Notes: generated from the sequence alone by a model not told the origin. A stretch of 59,144 bases of DNA, filler included, from Nitrospirota bacterium (GCA_011620345.1; 7 parts of 7 records of this genome joined end to end with filler, not necessarily neighbours in it), one strand, 5' to 3'. Shown: positions 41,089-54,868, counted from the first letter of the whole stretch. Made by a program: numbers and translations.

Positions 41089-41118
41089 CCTCTCCACAGG
41101 CTGACACCGTGGAACTCA
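41089..41118. mobile_element. Possible IS200/IS605-type terminal hairpin at the contig edge
   Basis: TCCAC(A)GG-CTGACA-CCGTGGA resembles the CCACGGCTGAAGCCGTGG subterminal hairpins and sits at an assembly break. Confidence 0.3.
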
Positions 41119-41205
41119 CGGCCAGGTTTCTCAAGTCCATATTCTATATGAATGCGCCAAAATAAGCAACTACACCAGAAACTGCGAATTGCCTCAAATT
41201 AAATG

Positions 41206-41562
41206 TTACCCTTCTTCGGGCGGCGTAACCGCCGGGGTTCCTGGAGCCTTGACTGATTCCTTCTCGCGTTTTGTCAGGTTTCTCTCCTTGAATTTTAACA
41301 GTTGCCGTTCAAGCGTATCTGCTAGGAGGTCAACCGCCGCCGAAAGGGTTTCGGCGTTTTCTTCCGCCCTAAACGTCCCATGCGGTGCGTTTACAAGCGC
41401 TTTGGCAATGTGGTTCTGTTTTTGTTCCTCGAGCGTAATCTCGACAACGGAGGCTTCCTCTAAATAACGATGGAGCTTGCGGAATCTTTTCTCTACGTAA
41501 TCCTTTAGGCGGTCCTTCGCATTTTCGTTGGCGAGCTGACGAAACTGTACTGCAATTTCCAT
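41206..41562 (-). CDS. hpf: Ribosome hibernation promoting factor (HPF/RaiA, short form)
   Basis: 'LKDYVEKRF.KL..Y', 'AAVD..AD.LERQL.K.KE'. Follows rpoN. Confidence 0.92.
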   Translation of the reverse strand: MEIAVQFRQLANENAKDRLKDYVEKRFRKLHRYLEEASVVEITLEEQKQNHIAKALVNAPHGTFRAEENAETLSAAVDLLADTLERQLLKFKERNLTKREKESVKAPGTPAVTPPEEG

Positions 41563-41580
41563 GTTCGAGCCTCCATTGGC

Positions 41581-42963
41581 TTAGTCTTTCCTCGATGAAG
41601 ATGCGCGCAATCCCATCTCTTTGCGATATTTTGCGATCGTTCTCCTTGCTACCGTTATCCCCTTGGTCTCCAAGAGCCGCTCGGCGATGACAATATCCGA
41701 GAGGGGGCGGTTTTTGGGCTCATGATGCACGATCTCCCAGATCAACGCCTTGAGCGTTTTTGCCGCAACGCCGGCCCCGTCTCTCTCTGGCAACGCATGC
41801 GAGAAGAAGGCCTTGAGCGCGACGAGCCCCTGTGGCGTTTGGGCATACTTGCCGGCAATTGCCCGGGAAACCGTAGATTCGTGGATGCCGACCTCCAAGG
41901 CGACATCCTTGAGCATGAGCGGCTTGAGGCCCTCTAGTCCAAAGTCCAAAAAGTCTCGTTGAAGGCGGGCGAGTACCGTGGCGACCTTATAGAGCGTCGT
42001 TTCTCGCTGCTGTACGCTCCTTGCAAACCACAACGCCGAACTGACCCGCTTTCTAAGGTAGCCTACCGCCTCCCTATCGAGCGTGTCCGGGTTTGCCAAA
42101 AGACCACGATAGGAGGGGCTGATACGGAGCCTTGTGCTGAACGGGCGGTTGATCGTGACGATATAATCTTGCCCTAACTTTGTCATGACGACGTCGGGGA
42201 AGACGAGAGAAACTTTCGAGGGTTCGATTCGTTTGGCCGGGGCAGGGTCGAGCTTTGCAATCAACGCAAGCGAGCGTCTGGCCTCGTCTTCATCCACGCC
42301 AAACTTACGAGCGATCAGCTTTGGGTCGGGCTTTTTGATGTCCTCGTGGTGCTCCAAAACGAGCCTGTCCGCAAGCGTGCCCTCGAGCCCCATTTCTGTG
42401 AGTTGGATATGCAGGCAATCTTTTAAGTCTTTTGCGAAAATGCCGGAAGGCTCAAGCTTCTGGAGGGCTTCCAGAACGCCCTCCGCCCTTTCTAGGGGCA
42501 TCCCCGCCTCACTTGCCGCTTCTTCAAGAGGGATACCAAGGTAGCCCCTCTCGTCCAAATTGCCTGCCAGGATCTCCGCGAACCGTGCTTCTTCCTCGGA
42601 GAATCCGAGCGAATGGATCTGGAACGTGAGGTATTCGAGCAAAGAGGGCTCCGAAGGCTGCTCTGGCCTTGCAGAAGCTTCCGGCTCGTACAGGTGGAAG
42701 GATGCTTCCGGAAGGTCGTTGGAAAAAAGGTAATCCATGAACTCCCGGAGCTCTCCCCGGTCTTGAGCATCTTGGGCCTTTTCTTGGCCCTCTTCGGGAA
42801 GGGCAAGCTCAAGCACGGGGTTGGCAAGCACCTCCGCCTCGATGCGCTCCTCCAGCTCCAGGCTCGTCATTTTGAGGAGCTTGAGGGCGAGCTCGAGCCT
42901 CGGAGTCAAGCTTAGACGGGTCGTTAGTTTCGTTTCTGTCGAGAGCTTCAATTTTAACCCCAT
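41581..42963 (-). CDS. rpoN: RNA polymerase sigma-54 factor
   Basis: LDERGYL, LEPSGIFA, HESTVSR, RpoN box ARRTIAKYR. Confidence 0.97.
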   Translation of the reverse strand: MGLKLKLSTETKLTTRLSLTPRLELALKLLKMTSLELEERIEAEVLANPVLELALPEEGQEKAQDAQDRGELREFMDYLFSNDLPEASFHLYEPEASARPEQPSEPSLLEYLTFQIHSLGFSEEEARFAEILAGNLDERGYLGIPLEEAASEAGMPLERAEGVLEALQKLEPSGIFAKDLKDCLHIQLTEMGLEGTLADRLVLEHHEDIKKPDPKLIARKFGVDEDEARRSLALIAKLDPAPAKRIEPSKVSLVFPDVVMTKLGQDYIVTINRPFSTRLRISPSYRGLLANPDTLDREAVGYLRKRVSSALWFARSVQQRETTLYKVATVLARLQRDFLDFGLEGLKPLMLKDVALEVGIHESTVSRAIAGKYAQTPQGLVALKAFFSHALPERDGAGVAAKTLKALIWEIVHHEPKNRPLSDIVIAERLLETKGITVARRTIAKYRKEMGLRASSSRKD

Positions 42964-42966
42964 GGC

Positions 42967-43704
42967 TTACAAGGCGAAATCTTCCCCTAAGTAAAGCCTT
43001 CTTGCCTGCTCGCTCGCCAAGATTTGCTTGTCGGTCCCTTCTTCCAGAATCTTTCCGTCGTACAGGATGTAGGCCCTGTCGCAAATGGCAAGCGTTTCGC
43101 GGACGTTGTGGTCCGTAATGAGGATCCCGATGTCCTTGGCCTTGAGCCGCCTGATGATCCCTTGCAAGTCCTGGATGGTAATCGGGTCGATGCCGGTAAA
43201 CGGCTCGTCCATCAAAAGGAACAACGGTTCAATGCACAGGGCTCTAGCAATCTCCAGCCTCCTGCGCTCGCCGCCCGAGAGCGAATAAGCCTTTTGGCCG
43301 GCGAGCCGGCCGATCTGGAGCTCGTCCAAGGAGCGTTCGGCCCTAGAGAGCCGTTCTTTGCGATTCAGGGGCTGGAACTCGAGGACGGCCAGGAGGTTCT
43401 CGAAAACCGTCAAGTTGGTGAACACTGAAGGCTCCTGGGGAAGGTAGACGATCCCTTTCTTCGATCGCTCCAGAAGCGATGCAGACGAGATGTCCTGGTC
43501 GTCTAGGAATACGCTCCTCGAGGGGTTTTTCAAAAGCCCCGTGACCATGTGGAACGTGGTCGTTTTTCCGGCTCCGTTCGGTCCTAAAAGCCCCACCACC
43601 TCGCCCCGTTGGACATGGAGGGAGACACCCCTTAAAATATGGCGTTTTCCGTAGTTTTTGTTGAGATCGTGGGCATGAAGCCGTTTCGCCGTTTTTGTGT
43701 TCAT
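42967..43704 (-). CDS. lptB: LPS export ABC transporter ATPase
   Basis: GLLGPNGAGKTT, YLPQEPSVF, LSGGERRR, DEPF.GIDP, ITDHNVRETL, YLG. Confidence 0.97.
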   Translation of the reverse strand: MNTKTAKRLHAHDLNKNYGKRHILRGVSLHVQRGEVVGLLGPNGAGKTTTFHMVTGLLKNPSRSVFLDDQDISSASLLERSKKGIVYLPQEPSVFTNLTVFENLLAVLEFQPLNRKERLSRAERSLDELQIGRLAGQKAYSLSGGERRRLEIARALCIEPLFLLMDEPFTGIDPITIQDLQGIIRRLKAKDIGILITDHNVRETLAICDRAYILYDGKILEEGTDKQILASEQARRLYLGEDFAL

Positions 43705-43720
43705 GGCGTACTTCTAAACA

Positions 43721-44209
43721 TTAGGGTGTTCGAGTGGATTCCTGGAAGAGCTTGATGTTTACCTTCTCGTCGCCGTCGCTCAAGACCTTCATCCGGTTGG
43801 TTAAAAAATCTACGAGAATTTTGCTACCCATAAGGGAGCTCTTTCCTTTGAACAACACAGGCTCTTCTTCGAAGATCATTTGGCGTGTCGAAGGGAAGAA
43901 CGTCGCCTTGCCGCATTTGACCACCATATTCTGGTAGACAACCTTCACGTTCCCCGCTGCCAGAATTTTCGACACCGACTGCGTCTTCGGGTCGAGAAAG
44001 GCCTTTAGGCTGTCGCAGACCATGACGATATCTCCGTAGACGGCCTGCACGTCGCCTTGGTAGGCCATGACGCTTTGGTTTCGATCAAACGTTAGGGAGT
44101 TGCCCTGGATGGTGATCGGCCCTTCATCTTGCCGCATGCCCATCTCTTTGGCCGCTAGGGGGGCCGTCAAGATAAGCAAAGCAAGCAAGGCCGCCCAAAG
44201 GCTCCTCAT
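43721..44209 (-). CDS. lptA: LPS transport periplasmic protein LptA/OstA
   Basis: Signal peptide, 'PITI', 'GDVQA', 'A.GNV'. Lies between lptC and lptB. Confidence 0.85.
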   Translation of the reverse strand: MRSLWAALLALLILTAPLAAKEMGMRQDEGPITIQGNSLTFDRNQSVMAYQGDVQAVYGDIVMVCDSLKAFLDPKTQSVSKILAAGNVKVVYQNMVVKCGKATFFPSTRQMIFEEEPVLFKGKSSLMGSKILVDFLTNRMKVLSDGDEKVNIKLFQESTRTP

Positions 44210-44826
44210 CGCTTCTTTGCTCCTTTTGAAAGCTTGCCAGGTTCTAGGCGCGTTCTTGGGGTTCCGCCAAGCTTTAGGTTCTGGTTCCCCTGTAAGCTTG
44301 CTTCCAGCCCCTTGCCTTCTAGCCAAGTTCCAGGGCCCTTGATTTGTACCGTGTCTTGCGTGGTAAGGCGACGGCTTTCCGGGGTAAACGTAAGGGAGTC
44401 GGTTGTTAGTAAAAAGTCGTTTGGAAGGTACGCTTTTGTGTTGCCCCATAGGGTGATTTTAAGCGGTTGGCCAAAATCTTTTGCAAAAAGAATCCGGCCC
44501 TTGTCGGCTTCAAGCACGAATACTTTTCCATCCGGGGTTGTCAGGTGAAGCCGAATGCCCGTAAGGTCTGTTTTTGCGCTGTTTCTAAGGAGCGAGGCCT
44601 CTTTCGCTTCGAGCTCCCAGGCGTTTCCTTGTTTGTCGTAAAAGGCGTGCCGAAATGTCCGGAACAAAACCGCCGGCCGCTCTGGCTTGAGCAGAGGTTC
44701 GGTGTTAGGTTTTGAGAGTTCCACGCTTGCCTTGAGCGCGCTGCCTGGCAGGGCAATGTAGGCGCTAAGCGCAAGAAAGCTCCCGATGAACGCCGCAAAC
44801 AAAAAGACGTAGCGCATAGCCCTCAA
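44206..44826 (-). CDS. lptC: LPS export periplasmic protein LptC
   Basis: Single N-terminal TM, beta-jellyroll motifs 'W.L.A..A', 'L.TDSL', 'G.GL', and synteny. Confidence 0.75.
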   Translation of the reverse strand: MRAMRYVFLFAAFIGSFLALSAYIALPGSALKASVELSKPNTEPLLKPERPAVLFRTFRHAFYDKQGNAWELEAKEASLLRNSAKTDLTGIRLHLTTPDGKVFVLEADKGRILFAKDFGQPLKITLWGNTKAYLPNDFLLTTDSLTFTPESRRLTTQDTVQIKGPGTWLEGKGLEASLQGNQNLKLGGTPRTRLEPGKLSKGAKKR

Positions 44827-45815
44827 GCCCTTTGCCGTGCGTTCGGTTTGAGAATGTCGTGCATATGAACGATTCCGACGAGAAAGCCGGGTTCGTTCGT
44901 GACGCAGAGCGCCGTAATGGCGTGCTGCTCCATCTTTTCCAGCGCTTCAAGTGCTAAGGCGTCCTCGAGGACTCTTTTGGGGTTGGGTGTCATAATTTCG
45001 CGAGCCAGCCTTTCCCAGATTCTTTTGTCGCTTTGAATCGCGCGGCGCAGGTCCCCGTCCGTAATGATTCCCACGAGCCTATTTTTGGCATCCAAGACGG
45101 CGGTGACGCCGAGGCCCTTCGAAGATATTTCGAGGATTGCCTCGGCCATGGGGGTACCTTCGGAAACCTTGGGGAGTGCCTCCCTTGCGTGCATTAAATC
45201 CTTGACGCGCAGATGCAGCTTGTGCCCGAGCGCGCCGGAAGGGTGCCTTAGGGCAAAGTCTTCTTTTTGGAAGCCCTTGAGGGTGGCAAGACAAAGCGCA
45301 AGGGCATCGCCCACGGCCAAGAAGGCCGTTGTCGAGCAGGTTGGGGCGAGCCTAAGCGGCGGGGCCTCCGTCTCTACGGGCAAGACGAGCGTGAAATCTG
45401 CGCCTTGAGCGAGGCTCGAGCCTGCCTTGGTCGTAAAGGCCAGTACTTTGACGTCCATCCTCTTGATGAAGGGCAGAAGCAAGACGAGTTCTTCGGTTTC
45501 TCCGCTTGCCGAAAAAAGAAGGACGACGTCGCTTGCGCTGATCATACCCAGGTCTCCGTGGAGGGCATCGAGGACATCCAGGCAGAAGCTCTCGGAGCCC
45601 AAGCTGGCCAGCGTTGAGGCGATCTTTTTGGCGATCAGGCCGGATTTTCCGACACCCGCCGTGACGATCTTGCCTTTGCACCTGGCGAGCTCCATCACGG
45701 CACGCTCGAAGTCTTCTTTGAGAGATTCGCCGACCTTAAGCAGCGTCCTTCCCTCCAAGGTGACGATTTCGCGGCCAAGGGCTACGAGAGAGCCGTCTGA
45801 AATCTGCTGTTCCAT
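44823..45815 (-). CDS. kdsD: Arabinose-5-phosphate isomerase (KpsF/GutQ, SIS + 2 CBS)
   Basis: GVGKSG, HGDLG, SASGETEE, APTCSTT, GDALA, HPSGALG, TDGDLRR. Confidence 0.95.
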   Translation of the reverse strand: MEQQISDGSLVALGREIVTLEGRTLLKVGESLKEDFERAVMELARCKGKIVTAGVGKSGLIAKKIASTLASLGSESFCLDVLDALHGDLGMISASDVVLLFSASGETEELVLLLPFIKRMDVKVLAFTTKAGSSLAQGADFTLVLPVETEAPPLRLAPTCSTTAFLAVGDALALCLATLKGFQKEDFALRHPSGALGHKLHLRVKDLMHAREALPKVSEGTPMAEAILEISSKGLGVTAVLDAKNRLVGIITDGDLRRAIQSDKRIWERLAREIMTPNPKRVLEDALALEALEKMEQHAITALCVTNEPGFLVGIVHMHDILKPNARQRA

Positions 45816-45853
45816 CCCTTTTTAGCCTCTAAATCCGCTATTCTCAGGTCTTT

Positions 45854-45862
45854 ATTCTAGCA
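45854..45862 (-). promoter_or_regulatory. Extended -10 (TGcTAGAAT) of the kdsD-lpt-rpoN operon
   Basis: TGn + TAGAAT on the minus strand, about 40 nt upstream of the kdsD start. Confidence 0.45.
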
Positions 45863-45901
45863 TGGATACAGAACCGGGATAAAGGCAGGCACTAAACCGC
45901 C

Positions 45902-46031
45902 CGATAGCCCAAGGCTTTCCAGGCCCGTCAGCGGAGGGCGCGGCCTTACACGCGGGGCGAGTTTGTCCCGCTATCGTGGGGGATGAAGGAATACTCGATA
46001 GCCGGGCCTTTCCAGGCCCGGCAGGGAGGCG
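45902..46031. repeat. Imperfect direct repeat (2 copies, ~36-39 nt) with GC hairpin
   Basis: CGATAGCC..CTTTCCAGGCCCG.CAG.GAGG.G at 45902-45940 and 45996-46031. Copy 2 forms GCCGGGCCT-TTCC-AGGCCCGGC. Confidence 0.6.
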
Positions 46032-46363
46032 ATGCCATGCAAATGCGGGTTATGTTTGGCCCGTGCATCGGAAGCGGGCGCGATTGTCTCGCCTATCAGA
46101 GGGGATATATTCTAACAATCAAGCCCAAGCNNNNNNNNNNNNNNNNNNNNNNNNNNNNNNNNNNNNNNNNNNNNTTAATTAATTAANNNNNNNNNNNNNN
46201 NNNNNNNNNNNNNNNNNNNNNNNNNNNNNNGTACATTTCATTTGGCTTTTTTGTTATTTACTACAAATCGGGCCATACGGAAACTGTTCACCCAGCTTTC
46301 TGACGTTCAATGAGAGGCAAATAGGAACAAGTTTTGTTTGTTGCGCTGCAATTTTCATCCTCC

Positions 46364-50550: not shown

Positions 50551-50667
50551 NNNNNNNNNNNNNNNNNNNNNNNNNNNNNNNNNNNNNNNNNNNNTTAATT
50601 AATTAANNNNNNNNNNNNNNNNNNNNNNNNNNNNNNNNNNNNNNNNNNNNGCAACATCCCAAGGCGC

Positions 50668-50696
50668 TTGATGCACCACGGAGGGTGTTTTAGAAT
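50668..50696 (+). promoter_or_regulatory. Sigma70-type promoter of the small orphan ORF
   Basis: TTGATG-N17-TAGAAT. Confidence 0.55.
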
Positions 50697-50749
50697 ATTG
50701 AGGCTGGGGTATGCATCTCGGCAAGAAACATTACAAAGGAGACGAGCCA

Positions 50750-50953
50750 ATGTACGACCTAACGTATGGTTTAATCGCTCCGGTTGCACAGCCGGTTGGA
50801 CAAATCATTCAAAACTTTGGTGTTGATACAAGTGCGGTTGCAGACTTTATTCAGAAATTTAGCCCTTTTCAGGATATTCCTTTCGTTGGTCCGCTTGTTT
50901 ATGGGGGGATGGCTGCCATCCGGGATGGCCTAGATAAGCTGCTCTTACAATAA
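50750..50953 (+). CDS. Hypothetical small amphipathic protein (67 aa)
   Basis: AAAGGAG RBS, its own promoter and a downstream palindrome: a complete monocistronic unit. Confidence 0.7.
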   Translation: MYDLTYGLIAPVAQPVGQIIQNFGVDTSAVADFIQKFSPFQDIPFVGPLVYGGMAAIRDGLDKLLLQ

Positions 50954-50964
50954 GCCCATTAAAG

Positions 50965-50990
50965 GGATAGGCCCAGCGCTGGGCCTATCC
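50965..50990. terminator. Perfect 26-bp palindrome between the convergent small ORF and cofG
   Basis: GGATAGGCCCAGCGCTGGGCCTATCC equals its own reverse complement. Confidence 0.6.
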
Positions 50991-51026
50991 TGATCATTGC
51001 CTCTTGATCGTTTCGTTGGTTATCCC

Positions 51027-52253
51027 TTATAAGCTCGGGCATGCTTCAATAGTCTTTTTTCCATATTCTTGAGCCCCGTTTTCATCCATGGATAGGCTTG
51101 CCCTAAATAAAGGGCGAACAAACGCCCTGGAAAAGAATTCCCGATACAAAGGGAGCCTGGGCTTCAGGCTGAACCCCTCCTTTGAAAGCTCGAGCCCCAG
51201 CGATTCGATATGCGGCCATGGCGCCTCCGGGTTGATAAAATCCTGCGTCAAGGGCGAGATGCCGCCCAAGTCGTTGATCCCGGCCCTGAGGTAATCTTCA
51301 AGCGGACCCGAGGCCAGGTTCGGCGGGGCCTGAATGTTCATGGCTCCGCCAAGAACAACCCTTGCAAGCGCAATGGTCAAGACCATTTCCTCATGGCTTG
51401 GGGGCCTTGCCTTGGCCATGGGGGTACGGGGTTTGGGGAGGAAATTTTGAATGATGACCTCCTGGATGTGGCCGAAGCGTGCCTGAATATCTTGAATGGC
51501 CAGAAGCGCTTCGAGCCTTTCTTCGAGCGTTTCGCCGATGCCTACTAGAATGCCCGTTGTAAAGGCAATGCCAAGCTCCCCGGCGCGCTCGAGCGTCCTT
51601 AGCCTTTCTTTAGGCGCCTTGCCAGGGCTTTTGGCGTGCGGCATTTTGGGGCTCAAGAAGCGCTCCGAGGCGTTTTCGAGCATTAGCCCCATGCTAAGCG
51701 AAGTAGGGCTTAGGAGCTCAAAATCTTCTTCATCCATGACGCCCACGTTGACGTGCGGGTAAAGCCCGGATTCTTCGAAGATACGCCTTGAAAGATGGGC
51801 GACGTAGGCGTTCGTCGAGCGAAAACCAAGATCTTCGAGCATTCGCTTATAAACCGGGTAGCGCTCCTCGGGTTTTTCCCCGAGCGTAAGAAGGGCCTCG
51901 CTGCAGCCAAAGCTTAAGCCTCGCCTGGCAAGATCGAGCGCGGCGGACTCTTGCATCAAGAACGCGCCCCAATGCTTAGGGGGCCTGGCGAACGTGCAAT
52001 AGTGGCAGTGGTTCCTGCAAAGCTTTGTTACGGGGAAGAACACCTTGGGCGAGTAGGTGATGATATGCCCGTGTGTGGAATCGCGAAGCCTGCCGGCCTG
52101 AGCAACCAGCCAATCGTGAGCGATAGGGCCAAACCGCTCGATGTCTTTGAAAAGCTCGCGGGCCCCTTCCGGGCTTAAGCCTTTCAAGGGAATACCGCTG
52201 CCTTTAGAGGGTCCCAAGGAAGAAGCTCCCGGGCTTTCCATCCGATACTCCAT
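51027..52253 (-). CDS. cofG: FO synthase subunit 1 (7,8-didemethyl-8-hydroxy-5-deazariboflavin synthase), radical SAM
   Basis: TYSPKVF.P.T.LCRNHCHYCTF, EALLTLGEKPE, PH.N.G, SMGLMLE, FTTGILVGIGE, HIQEVIIQNF.PK, QAPPNL, ND.GGISP.T.DFINPE.PWP. Confidence 0.93.
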   Translation of the reverse strand: MEYRMESPGASSLGPSKGSGIPLKGLSPEGARELFKDIERFGPIAHDWLVAQAGRLRDSTHGHIITYSPKVFFPVTKLCRNHCHYCTFARPPKHWGAFLMQESAALDLARRGLSFGCSEALLTLGEKPEERYPVYKRMLEDLGFRSTNAYVAHLSRRIFEESGLYPHVNVGVMDEEDFELLSPTSLSMGLMLENASERFLSPKMPHAKSPGKAPKERLRTLERAGELGIAFTTGILVGIGETLEERLEALLAIQDIQARFGHIQEVIIQNFLPKPRTPMAKARPPSHEEMVLTIALARVVLGGAMNIQAPPNLASGPLEDYLRAGINDLGGISPLTQDFINPEAPWPHIESLGLELSKEGFSLKPRLPLYREFFSRAFVRPLFRASLSMDENGAQEYGKKTIEACPSL

Positions 52254-52562
52254 CGCCTGAAGCTGGTTTGTAGCCAGTTGCCCTGGCTATCGCCTTGATT
52301 CCCTTTCCGGCACAACACCGCAATCATCGCAAGAACTAAAAAATACTGTTATTATTTTATATGCCTCCGAGAACGATGGTCAAGAATTCGAGGAAACAGG
52401 CGATCCACAACGCGGCATCCGGGTTTTATGGGCTGCAAAGAGCCACGAGGAGGCAACCAGGCTTGACTGGAACCAGTTCATCGATAAACATGGACGCTTC
52501 TTAAAAATAAGCTTCAAGCATTTTGTAAAGCGCCAACATAGATTTATAATAGGAATTCAACG

Positions 52563-53744
52563 ATGCCCCATACATTGCTAAAACCAAAATTAAACGGAAG
52601 CAATGCCTTCCTAGAGGCCCTGGGCCCATTAACGCGCTCTTTGGAAAAAATTCTCGAGAACGCGCTGGAAGGCAGGCCGCTAGGAGACGACGAGGCCCTT
52701 GAGCTGTTCCATGCTACAGGACCCGGCTTGAATGCGCTTGCTTGCGTGGCCGATAGGGTCAAGCGAAGGCGCGTCGGGGACACCGCCACGTTCGTGATCA
52801 ACCGCAACATCAACTTTACGAACGATTGCGTCGTCGGCTGCAAGTTCTGTGGGTTTTTTAGGAGCGCCCAAGACGAAGACGTGTACCATTACACGCTCGA
52901 GGACATCCAACAAAAGACGCTCGAGGCAAAGGCCCTTGGCGCGACGGAAGTTTGTATCCAGGGCGGCCTCCCTAAAAGCTTCGATGGGTTCTTTTACAGG
53001 GACATCCTAAGGGCAGTCAAACAATCGGCGCCCGAGATGCATATCCATGCATTTTCGCCGATGGAGGTCCTCTACGGATCGCAACTTACGGGCATGGGTT
53101 TTAAAGGCTTTCTTCAAATGCTCAAAGACGAAGGTCTTGGATCGATGCCCGGCACGGCGGCCGAGGTCTTCGACGAATCCGTAAGGGCGCTTATCTCCAA
53201 GAACAAGCTCCCTTTGGAGCTATGGGCCGAAATCGTCAAAACGGCCCATAGGCTGGGTATCCCCACAACCTCTACGATCATGTACGGCCATATCGAATCG
53301 CCCCAAGACATCGTCGCCCATATGCGGGCCATCAAGGACATCCAAAAAGAAACGGGCGGGATCACGGAATTCGTACCGTTGGGGTTCATCTATCCCAACA
53401 CAAAGCTCCATGCCGAAGGGAAGGTCAAATCAGGCCCGTCTGGGCTGCTCGACCTCAAGGTGCACGCAATCGCCCGGCTCTACTTTCAGGGGATGATTGA
53501 CCATATTCAGGCCTCATGGGTAAAGATTGGCCCCAAGCTCGCCCAGGTGCTCCTTTTGGCGGGTGCGGACGACTTCGGCGGGACATTGATGGAAGAGCAC
53601 ATCGCTAAGGCGGCCGGCGGAACAGAAAGAGAATACCTCCAACCCGACACGTTCGTTGCCTTAATTCGAGAGCTTGGGCTTACGCCGATCCAGCGCAGCA
53701 CGATCTACAAGCCCATTAAGGTCTACCAAAAGGCGGGCGCTTGA
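52563..53744 (+). CDS. cofH: FO synthase subunit 2, radical SAM
   Basis: VINRNINFTNDCVVGCKFCGF, ATEVCIQGG, HIHAFSPME, SMPGTAAE, TIMYGH.E, TEFVPL, IQASWVK, D.GGTLMEE.I. Adjacent to cofG. Confidence 0.9.
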   Translation: MPHTLLKPKLNGSNAFLEALGPLTRSLEKILENALEGRPLGDDEALELFHATGPGLNALACVADRVKRRRVGDTATFVINRNINFTNDCVVGCKFCGFFRSAQDEDVYHYTLEDIQQKTLEAKALGATEVCIQGGLPKSFDGFFYRDILRAVKQSAPEMHIHAFSPMEVLYGSQLTGMGFKGFLQMLKDEGLGSMPGTAAEVFDESVRALISKNKLPLELWAEIVKTAHRLGIPTTSTIMYGHIESPQDIVAHMRAIKDIQKETGGITEFVPLGFIYPNTKLHAEGKVKSGPSGLLDLKVHAIARLYFQGMIDHIQASWVKIGPKLAQVLLLAGADDFGGTLMEEHIAKAAGGTEREYLQPDTFVALIRELGLTPIQRSTIYKPIKVYQKAGA

Positions 53745-54868
53745 TGGAGCGCTTCAAGAACCTCATCCAGGACGTGGTGAACTTTGGCAGCTGCTGCGAG
53801 TGCGGCGCCTGCGTGCTCGTTTGCCCCTACGGCGTCATCGAATACATCGACGGCAAGCCCAAACAAACGGCCCGTCCCAGCGCCCCGGAGGACTTCTGCG
53901 CCGTTTCGGAGGGGATCGGCTGCGATGTCTGCGCCAAGGCCTGCCCGAGGCTCGATGGGAATGAAGGGGAGTTAGGGCGCTTCCTTGATCTTCCAGAGGC
54001 GGAAGGGAGCCCTTACGGGCGTCTCGAGCCGCTCGTTGTCGTGAGAACCAAGGACCCCGGCATTCTCGGCAAGGCCCAAGACGGCGGGTTCGTGACCCAG
54101 TTCCTTATCTGGGCGCTCGAAACGGGTCGCATCGATGCGGCCGTTGCGGCGATCGCCGACCCAAACGCCCCGGCCAAGCCCATCCCCGCCCTGCTGACGA
54201 CCAAAGAAGACATCCTAAAGAGCGCAAAATCTTGGTATACCTACTCGCCCAATTTGCTTGCCTTAAAGGAGGCCAAAGAAAGGGGCTTTCGGCGTGTCGG
54301 GTTTGTGGGAACCCCATGCGAGATCACCCCGTTGGTCAAGCTTCTTTCCAAGGATGCGGGTGGGCTTAGAACGCCCAAGAAGAACGAAAGGCAAGTTCTT
54401 CGCCAAGCCGAGCACTTGAAGGGGTTTGCCGAGATCGTGGCCATCCGGATCGGGCTTTTCTGCTCGGAGGTGTTCACGTTCGAGGGGCTAATGGAAGGCA
54501 AGATCGCGAAAGAGATGGGCATTCCTTTGGAGCGAATCCAGAAGTTCAACGTCAAGGGGAAGGTGCTGATTCACCTGGACTCGGGCGAGACGGTCACGCT
54601 ACCCCTAAAGGAGGCGCAGGCATTCGCAAGGCCCGAGTGTGCGTTCTGCGGAGATTTTAGCGCCGAGCATGCCGACATCGTTGCCGGCGGTGTGGGGCTT
54701 ACAGGGCAAACGCTGGCGGGCGCAAGAACAGCACTTGGAAAGGCTTGGATTGAAGAGGCGCTGAAAGAGGGCCTGTTCGAAATCCGGCCCGCCCAGGCCT
54801 ATCCAAAATCGCTGGAAATTTTGGATAGGCTCGCTAGAAAACAGAAGGCCCGGAGTGAAAAGGCCTAC
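53744..54868 (+). CDS. Coenzyme F420 hydrogenase/dehydrogenase beta subunit (FrhB/FdhB/FpoF family) with N-terminal ferredoxin domain; runs into gap
   Basis: CCECGACVLVCP, C..CDVCAKACP, AQDGG.VT, VGTPC, IGLFC.E.F, CAFCGDF.AE.ADI..G. TGATG coupling with cofH. Confidence 0.88.

Follow-up and report, generated by a model that had tools for sequence, protein, structure and literature searches.

A free-standing FrhB/FpoF-type flavoprotein beside F420 biosynthesis genes in a Nitrospirota bacterium, a candidate ferredoxin-linked F420 reductase

Introduction

What does an iron-sulfur flavoprotein of the FrhB/FpoF type do in a bacterium in which its gene follows directly on a gene for deazaflavin biosynthesis? 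The question is raised by a locus of a Nitrospirota bacterium (GCA_011620345.1) in which cofG and cofH are divergently transcribed and cofH is followed by such a flavoprotein gene, here called FrhBl. The locus occupies positions 51027–54868 of the window, by which we mean the whole stretch of 59,144 nucleotides that was analysed, a chain of contigs of a metagenome-assembled genome joined by N-ttaattaattaa-N linkers; coordinates are those of the whole window unless a contig or locus is named. CofG and CofH together form the two-subunit synthase of FO (7,8-didemethyl-8-hydroxy-5-deazariboflavin). The original prediction for this locus was that a stand-alone F420 oxidoreductase linked to ferredoxin may regenerate F420H2, and the best reading of the evidence compiled here agrees with that proposal.

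In a review of F420 (PMC8498797), the bacterial F420 reducers are given as Fno, Fgd and Adf, with FrhB and FpoF unmentioned, and for the F420 producers among the Betaproteobacteria and Tectomicrobia, Fno is described as the sole known F420-reducing dehydrogenase encoded. We describe here the domain structure and predicted fold of FrhBl, its recurrence beside F420 biosynthesis genes in other bacteria and the remaining F420 metabolism of its genome, and weigh the roles that it might have.

Results and Discussion

The cofH–FrhBl pair

FrhBl lies on the plus strand at 53744–54868, where 375 codons can be read before the contig (C70) ends. About 15 C-terminal residues are missing, since a full-length protein of 98% identity comprises 390 residues, and the start codon is supported by the N-terminus MERFKNL, which agrees with those of full-length relatives. 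The gene directly upstream, cofH (52563–53744, plus strand), encodes the second radical-SAM subunit of FO synthase, a protein of 393 residues with the Pfam domains Radical_SAM and CofH_C that scores 462.5 bits on TIGR03551 (cut-off 374.1) and 439.6 bits on NF005609 (cut-off 426), both of them NCBIfam equivalog models. The TGA stop codon of cofH (53742–53744) and the ATG of FrhBl (53744–53746) have their A in common, and this TGATG overlap (53742–53746, plus strand) implies that the two genes are translationally coupled.

On the opposite strand, cofG (51027–52253, minus strand) encodes the other radical-SAM subunit, of 408 residues and with the Pfam domain Radical_SAM, which scores 410.6 bits on TIGR03550 (cut-off 213.35) and 385.6 bits on NF004884 (cut-off 209). 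The separate and divergent cofG and cofH of the original prediction are therefore confirmed as open reading frames, each above its equivalog cut-offs, and so is a TGATG-coupled FrhB-family gene with a ferredoxin domain, on which sequence and Pfam agree. The claim that no gene for a hydrogenase or a formate dehydrogenase lies upstream of FrhBl in its operon also holds, as cofH alone is found there.

Architecture and predicted fold of FrhBl

Residues 11–69 of FrhBl (53774–53950, plus strand) match Pfam Fer4 families and form an N-terminal ferredoxin domain with two [4Fe-4S] motifs, C17-x2-C20-x2-C23-x3-C27-P and C52-x7-C60-x2-C63-x3-C67-P. The remainder (54035–54793, plus strand) consists of FrhB_FdhB_N (PF04422, residues 98–175, 73.9 bits, cut-off 22) and FrhB_FdhB_C (PF04432, residues 183–350, 99.6 bits, cut-off 23.3), with an FAD site and one further [4Fe-4S] cluster. 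In an alignment of 34 sequences all eight ferredoxin cysteines (C17, C20, C23, C27, C52, C60, C63 and C67) are invariant, as are the core cysteines C192, C240, C299 and C302. The segments D113-G114-G115, S163-W-Y-T-Y167 and G237-F244 are likewise invariant and align with FrhB, in which the FAD loops comprise QDGG and residues 71–77 and 131–138 (Allegretti et al. 2014, PMC3930138); the FrhBl counterparts of these loops are conserved. The Fsr-N architecture has been defined as an FrhB core plus two N-terminal ferredoxin-type [4Fe-4S] centres (PMC3448663), a description that fits FrhBl with its two CxxCxxCxxxCP-type motifs in residues 17–68. FpoF/FqoF, FGltS(I)-alpha, aFsr-beta, zeta and FwdI are modules of this type.

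A family profile built from 34 members and run against the PDB gave its highest scores with FrhB of three methanogen hydrogenases (211, 202 and 198 bits), followed by FwdI (8rja_E, 197 bits) and the zeta subunit of ACDS (8riu_B, 191 bits), both of which match the ferredoxin domain as well. Lower scores were obtained for the Fsr sulfite reductases (161 and 157 bits), HCAR (58.8 bits) and FdhB (47–38 bits). The AlphaFold2 model of FrhBl has a pLDDT of 83 and a pTM of 0.86. Its best Foldseek matches are 8rja_E and 8riu_B (TM 0.77–0.81), followed by FrhB and Fsr-N, and alignment with VIA-align gave a full-length superposition on 8riu_B with Z 41.1 and an rmsd of 2.1 over 331 aligned residues at 32% identity. 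The corresponding Z scores are 36.9 for 8rja_E, 35.5 for Fsr-N, 35–34 for FrhB (rmsd 1.6–1.8), 29.5 for HCAR (23% identity) and 26.8–24.1 for FdhB. By both profile and fold, then, FrhBl ranks with F420 reductase modules and away from HCAR.

The equivalog models for FrhB give FrhBl 160.4 bits (TIGR03289, cut-off 331.5) and 184.8 bits (PRK09325, cut-off 269), and those for FpoF 101.7 bits (NF040616, cut-off 475) and 107.2 bits (NF006808, cut-off 444), in each case below the cut-off for FrhB proper or FpoF proper. Judged by its sequence, FrhBl is a protein of Fsr-N/FpoF-type architecture that is a member of no named subfamily.

The closest structural relatives, at 27–32% identity, are the ACDS zeta subunit (8RIU chain B) and FwdI (8RJA chain E) of Candidatus Ethanoperedens thermophilum, which share the three-part build of FrhBl. 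A section of Lemaire et al. 2024 (PMC11493965) describes the zeta subunit as bound to carbon monoxide dehydrogenase (CODH) and active in F420 reduction, with a ferredoxin domain of two clusters in residues 1–83, an F420-reductase domain with one cluster and FAD in residues 84–349, and a C-terminal extension. Zeta and FwdI are archaeal, form complexes with CODH or formylmethanofuran dehydrogenase and have their genes in the operons of these enzymes, whereas FrhBl is bacterial, has no such partner gene nearby and is found in or beside F420 biosynthesis genes. FpoF/FqoF, the input subunit of F420H2 dehydrogenase, has the same Fsr-N architecture as FrhBl and can act free-standing; soluble FpoF of Methanosarcina mazei is reported to be a ferredoxin:F420 oxidoreductase, according to work cited in a passage of Chadwick et al. 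2022 (PMC9012536). FrhBl differs from it in having no Fpo/Fqo operon, the complex-I-like cluster in its neighbourhood being Hyf/Ehr-like and in another operon. The catalytic domain of FrhB, which gives the highest profile scores of the family, has the FAD loops and the four cysteines in common with FrhBl, but FrhB lacks the ferredoxin domain at the N-terminus and has FrhA and FrhG as its partners, and no hydrogenase genes are adjacent to FrhBl or present elsewhere on contig C70.

Recurrence beside F420 biosynthesis genes

A word-based search returned 921 relatives of FrhBl among 8000 candidates scored. A handful of them, which represent its own lineage, are 80–98% identical; the next are 50–55% identical and 380–420 residues long, carry the depositor labels Binatia, Nitrospinota, Tectomicrobia, Dadabacteria and 'Deltaproteobacteria', and are publicly annotated as 'coenzyme F420 hydrogenase subunit beta'. 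Nitrospirota-labelled records are also represented in the family. Of 336 pattern matches in species-representative genomes, 278 proved to encode a relative. For the 80 loci retained for comparison, open reading frames were chosen by a codon-position GC filter, the neighbours were clustered and 38 of the 56 recurrent clusters were annotated. The annotated neighbours are housekeeping genes (pheS/T, HU/IHF-type Bac_DNA_binding, surE, pcm, M23 peptidase, uvrC, comEC, amt and others); subunits of hydrogenase, formate dehydrogenase, complex I/Fpo or 2-oxoacid:ferredoxin oxidoreductase do not occur among these 38 clusters. A search of longer proteins yielded no close fused form of FrhBl, only three distant ones at 27–29% identity, of which one is Fsr-like and the other two carry GltD-like domains. 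Because the neighbours are of the housekeeping kind and close fusions were not found, FrhBl is, on the available evidence, free-standing, in line with the stand-alone gene of the original prediction.

The association that does recur is with F420 biosynthesis. Genes of the cof set adjoin FrhBl in 14 of the 80 loci, the other 66 having no cof gene within the flank examined. In two Nitrospinota-labelled loci (L024 and L078) the order is cofG-cofH-FrhBl-cofD-cofC, with cofE next in L024, L078 ending earlier. The other twelve, of the Binatia type, have FrhBl tail to tail with cofE-cofD(-cofH-cofG), an arrangement that forms one subclade in the tree (support 99). The second phylum was sampled through 51 genomes of the GTDB phylum to which one Nitrospinota-labelled genome (G042) belongs: FrhBl is present in 48 of them and cofH scores above its cut-off in 49, two of the latter being without FrhBl. 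In 42 of the 48 carriers FrhBl follows cofH directly and in the same orientation, with 34–610 nt (median 176) between the matched regions; in two loci the cofH stop and the FrhBl start are separated by 20 nt and 13 nt, respectively, and a ribosome-binding site is present in both.

Two complete genomes show the operon cofG-cofH-FrhBl-nitroreductase-cofD-cofC-cofE. A stand-alone nitroreductase gene between FrhBl and cofD is seen at L115:9055–9855 (G310) and L116:6388–6978 (G323), and also in L024 and L078. The best family of the operon nitroreductase is the FbiB C-terminal domain (TIGR03553), which it matches with 144 bits, short of the cut-off of 249.55; for this reason we take it for a probable dehydro-F420-0 reductase of the stand-alone FbiE kind. 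A stand-alone 'FbiE' is described in the F420 review (PMC8498797).

In a quick maximum-likelihood tree of 29 rows, with SH-aLRT support only and an unsure root placed on the genome's own very long-branched paralogue, the window lineage (5 rows, support 95) is sister to the remaining members (23 rows, support 97). The cof-linked state appears in several of its deep branches, in three gene orders and in three phyla, so that one recently transferred operon is no explanation for it.

A phylum-level sample around a Binatia genome contained 4 orthologues in 151 genomes along with many distant paralogues, and at class level 59 of the 101 Binatia sampled carry FrhBl, none of them in more than one copy. 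The same class shows that carriers and non-carriers alike have F420 biosynthesis genes: cofD is present in 95 of the 101 genomes, in 55 of the 59 carriers and in 40 of the 42 non-carriers (counts that include the unpublished genome G277). Since cofD is kept in nearly all non-carriers, FrhBl is apparently not needed to make F420. Five of five separately checked carrier genomes have cofD.

F420 metabolism of the genome

The genome, of 1.8 Mb and 96.8% complete, encodes cofD (320.2 bits, cut-off 257.45) and cofE (185.9 bits, cut-off 180.65), and directly upstream of cofE a cofC-like gene with 99.3–99.9 bits, just below the cut-off of 105. With these three genes beside cofG and cofH, the organism is expected to make F420, beyond FO alone. 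The original prediction had looked to F420-dependent enzymes elsewhere in the genome as a check; one LLM-class oxidoreductase (TIGR03617, 411.8 bits, cut-off 278) is present, and no PNPOx-type FDOR was found in the genome with positive search controls. For FDOR-A (PF04075) there were zero matches in the genome, but the controls were equally silent. The LLM gene, at C68:12811–13878 (L103:1408–2475, minus strand), adjoins a cyanase-like gene that scores 102.5 bits on the cynS model, below the cut-off of 113.3.

As to the usual routes of F420 reduction, no match to Fno was found in the genome with positive search controls, nor was Fgd found, the sole LLM protein scoring 53 bits on TIGR03554 against a cut-off of 420; the view that the Fgd/Fno route is not that of this genome is therefore sustained. 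A reductase of the FbiB C-terminal (FbiE-like) type was not detected in the genome either (TIGR03553 at most 26 bits; best tblastn match 34% over 82 residues). A second FrhB-family paralogue is encoded on contig C61. By its predicted gene content, the genome is one with very few recognisable F420 enzymes and without the usual bacterial F420 reducers.

Proposed function of FrhBl

On balance, and with some reserve, we favour the view that FrhBl is a free-standing F420 reductase that draws on iron-sulfur proteins or ferredoxin and supplies F420H2. We infer F420 as the substrate, the electron donor and the direction of flow. Single electrons from a low-potential iron-sulfur donor, either a soluble ferredoxin or, in an enzyme that reduces ferredoxin, the distal cluster, would enter at the two N-terminal clusters, pass through the third [4Fe-4S] cluster to the FAD and be collected there, and the FAD would then transfer a hydride to F420 (or FO). 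F420H2 would thus be supplied in an organism in which neither Fno nor Fgd was found. The transfer of electrons from reduced ferredoxin to F420 is downhill by established potentials. The same chemistry is known for FrhB, FpoF, Fsr-N, zeta and FwdI, and its extension to FrhBl would be the most economical reading.

Fno and Fgd resemble FrhBl in its proposed supply of F420H2 and in its place beside F420 biosynthesis genes, as they are often encoded in cof clusters (PMC8498797). Their folds (Rossmann and TIM barrel) are nonetheless unrelated to that of FrhBl, and their donors are NADPH and glucose-6-phosphate, whereas FrhBl as an F420 reductase would use electrons from iron-sulfur proteins or ferredoxin. 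Since Fno, Fgd and other F420 redox genes also occur in cof clusters (PMC8498797, Figure 10 legend), linkage alone is no proof of a biosynthetic role, and the membership of FrhBl in such operons fits a 'cofactor-charging' enzyme.

Several observations weigh against assigning FrhBl as an F420 reductase. Every NCBIfam equivalog cut-off is missed by FrhBl, and its ferredoxin domain is modelled at low confidence (pLDDT 46–77). Contig C70 ends inside FrhBl, before any downstream gene. Of the 101 Binatia genomes 53 encode Fno, and the complementarity of Fno with FrhBl is only weak: 26 genomes have both genes, 33 have FrhBl alone, 27 have Fno alone and 15 have neither (odds ratio 0.44, Fisher p 0.07). 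Kinship among these genomes, which are not independent, overstates this complementarity. Finally, the tight and widely conserved placement of FrhBl between cofH and the FbiB-C-terminal-like reductase would also fit a biosynthetic helper.

A helper in deazaflavin biosynthesis

As such a helper, FrhBl would be dedicated to deazaflavin biosynthesis and would take electrons from ferredoxin or, in a self-priming loop, from F420H2, a role that we consider possible but rather doubtful. The recipients might be the radical-SAM clusters of CofH and CofG, the FMN cofactor of the FbiB-C-terminal-like dehydro-F420-0 reductase, or both, an assignment that we propose just as tentatively. A helper role would explain why, throughout a phylum, FrhBl is fixed in its position between cofH and the fbiE-like gene, as seen in the 42 carriers with FrhBl directly after cofH, in the gaps of 13–20 nt with ribosome-binding sites and in the operons of the two complete genomes, and it would explain the translational coupling to cofH in the present genome. 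The tail-to-tail arrangement with cofE in the twelve loci of a Binatia subclade and the occurrence of the cof-linked state in several deep branches of the tree point the same way. However, the retention of cofD by 40 of 42 Binatia non-carriers, the two genomes of the second phylum with cofH but without FrhBl and the 66 loci without a cof gene in the flank examined all argue against a dedicated helper, as does the presence of Fno- and Fgd-type redox genes in cof clusters. F420H2, at about −340 mV by established potentials, would also be a poor donor for radical-SAM clusters, and the FbiE-like recipient was not found in this genome by the searches given above. The strongest signal, which the sequence of this locus alone does not show, is that in other phyla the FrhBl family belongs to operons for F420 biosynthesis, and this leaves the helper role some weight.

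A docking module of a larger enzyme

FrhBl could also dock on a larger enzyme as its input or output module, comparable to FpoF with Fpo, zeta with CODH or FwdI with Fwd, which we regard as unlikely. The candidate partners, no more probable than the docking itself, would be a Hyf/Ehr-like complex encoded on contig C32 or a 2-oxoacid:ferredoxin oxidoreductase. In favour of docking, the two best structural matches, 8riu_B and 8rja_E, bind to their partner enzymes through the N-terminal ferredoxin domain, as described in a section of the zeta report (PMC11493965), and C70 abuts C32, on which the complex lacks NiFe cysteines and a NuoI-like gene. Against it, a gene of the metallo-beta-lactamase fold and cofG, both on the opposite strand, lie between the C32 complex and the FrhBl operon, and genes for complex I, hydrogenase and 2-oxoacid:ferredoxin oxidoreductase are absent from the 38 annotated neighbour clusters of the 80 loci, which are from other phyla.

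The C32 cluster (C32:268–7367, equivalent to L008) encodes a six-gene Hyf-like membrane complex of the composition HyfB-C-E-F-G-I, with NuoL-, NuoH-, HyfE-, NuoM-, fused NuoCD- and NuoB-like genes. Its large subunit is without the NiFe-ligand cysteines, the cluster is without a ferredoxin subunit of the HyfH/NuoI type, and by its sequence it looks like an 'energy-converting hydrogenase-related' complex. It is a transcription unit separate from the FrhBl operon. The ferredoxin domain of FrhBl may replace the missing NuoI/HyfH subunit of this complex, which would then be a bacterial counterpart of Fpo.

The second candidate partner is suggested by the FrhB paralogue of the same genome, which is encoded in an operon with IorAB-like genes. 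This operon lies outside the window in an island at C61:18429–25041 (L007:4429–11042, minus strand). The paralogue, of 385 residues and 33% identity to FrhBl, has the same build of N-terminal Fer4 and FrhB domains, and its operon partners are LutA-, LutB- and LutC-like, IorA-like (TIGR03336, 559 bits, cut-off 651) and IorB-like genes. The operon is a bacterial parallel to archaeal 'FrhB6-Pfor' clusters as these appear in a part of Chadwick et al. 2022 (PMC9012536), and it may couple the oxidation of lactate or a 2-oxoacid to F420 reduction. In the sister species (G001, the only other species of the genus) the C61 flanks are retained at 91% identity and the entire island is absent. A repeat of about 30–70 nt at the end of C61 (C61:25025–25113, L007:11026–11114) has dozens of copies in G001 at 71–100% identity, several of them closely spaced on contigs C44, C49, C51 and C22, and may represent a dispersed or tandem family or an array.

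A reductase for another substrate

HCAR and BciB are ferredoxin-dependent reductases of chlorophyll metabolism that have the FrhB fold and are not F420 users. They share the fold with FAD and iron-sulfur clusters with FrhBl and occur in plants and bacteria. That FrhBl is in the same way a ferredoxin-dependent reductase for a non-F420 substrate seems to us quite improbable: the fold is indeed used by F420-independent enzymes, the Z score with HCAR reaches 29.5 and bacterial 'frhB' genes are found in photosynthesis clusters (PMC9426454), but HCAR is a much weaker match, at 58.8 bits on the family profile compared with about 200 for FrhB, FwdI and zeta, HCAR and BciB have no link to cof genes, and FrhBl is cof-linked in three phyla with F420 biosynthesis in the carrier genomes. 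No pigment genes were found near FrhBl, and both profile and fold rank HCAR, the one of the two reductases that was compared, below the F420 enzymes.

Assignment of the contig to the genome

The locus is part of contig C70, which in its entirety (window 50651–54868, 4218 nt) forms the subject of this report. The contig is short, and the sister species G001, 93% complete, has neither cofH nor any DNA match to C70, both of which could speak for a contaminant. C70 and C32, however, share an exact overlap of 55 nt, with which C70 begins and C32 ends, and C32 (8.6 kb) matches the end of a 90-kb G001 contig at 97% identity over its positions 1–2365. The G001 contig breaks at exactly that point, which accounts for the absence of cofH and of a C70 match, and cofD is present in G001. 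The GC content of C70 is 0.552 compared with 0.557 for the genome, and its tetranucleotide distance of 0.0192 falls at the 72nd percentile of 400 fragments of 4.2 kb from the genome itself, compared with 0.0356 for the nearest homologous locus from another phylum.

A near-identical stretch was detected in 20 public DNA runs from 8 studies, with no RNA run among those listed, and independent public assemblies have the same arrangement in all four runs compared, each from a different study. One public contig of 5152 nt covers the stretch from end to end and shows 40 differences from it, with no insertion or deletion reported at the cofH/FrhBl junction; a contig of 11914 nt from another study extends 9373 nt upstream of the stretch and agrees with the join to C32. 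Three public contigs continue for 606, 1191 and 1742 nt beyond the end of C70, and FrhBl orthologues of 80–98% identity are found on contigs of 29 to 171 kb, one of them labelled Nitrospirota in NCBI. When metagenomes were scanned for close relatives, the contig of the window itself was the sole match. The lineage is tiny: of the 40 relatives listed one belongs to the same genus and the other 39 share only the domain.

Taken with the exact overlap, the composition and the single contig of another study that spans the stretch, these data make it very unlikely that C70 is contaminating or chimeric, and we give next to no weight to the reading that the module is foreign to the organism through a binning error. 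The membership of the locus in this genome, for which the original prediction had proposed a check by tetranucleotide profile, is thus confirmed by that profile, by the C32 overlap and by the independent assemblies.

Inside cofH, at 52690–53510, the assemblies of three of the four runs are fragmented and the summed contig depth rises two- to four-fold, which suggests strain variants or a stretch common to other organisms. The short length of C70 is probably explained by assembly breaks inside cofH with rising depth. The last 15–31 bases of C70 recur in no other contig of the bin, and C70 is followed in the window by the linker to C71 (54869–54968), N runs around ttaattaattaa that are not genomic sequence. 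Elsewhere in the window, the first 40 bases of contig C60 (window 41089–46130) recur inside the 236-kb contig C50 near position 65475; C60 may duplicate part of C50 or start in a repeat.

Other features of the locus

CofG has an N-terminal extension of about 47–65 residues (window 52056–52253), the family models starting to match at residues 48–66, and both the annotated ATG and an internal start are possible for the gene. The divergent intergenic region between cofG and cofH (52254–52562) measures 309 bp. It contains a sigma-70-like site in the direction of cofH on the plus strand at 52523–52550 (TTGTAA-16-TATAAT) and another in the direction of cofG on the minus strand at 52383–52354 (TTGACC-18-TAAAAT). 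These are consensus matches only, and the three such sites in the contig, compared with 2.0 ± 1.4 in shuffled sequences, are at chance level. Rfam returned zero families at E ≤ 1 for contig C70, including the divergent spacer.

Significance

The kind of protein to which FrhBl belongs is already known; what is new is the recurrent link of a bacterial stand-alone clade to F420 biosynthesis genes, and our literature search found no account of a widespread bacterial stand-alone FrhB/FpoF-type clade in F420 biosynthesis operons. Its fixed place in F420 operons makes the question of its function testable with one recombinant protein. Were FrhBl a helper of biosynthesis, the deazaflavin pathway would have one more component than has been recognised. 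If FrhBl reduces F420, it would provide an entry point for bacterial F420 reduction that is linked to ferredoxin or iron-sulfur proteins, and F420 chemistry in these bacteria would be tied to anaerobic low-potential metabolism, as it is in archaea. It could then be used as a module that regenerates the cofactor in F420-dependent biocatalysis, and it would explain how the cofactor is charged in bacteria that have neither Fno nor Fgd.

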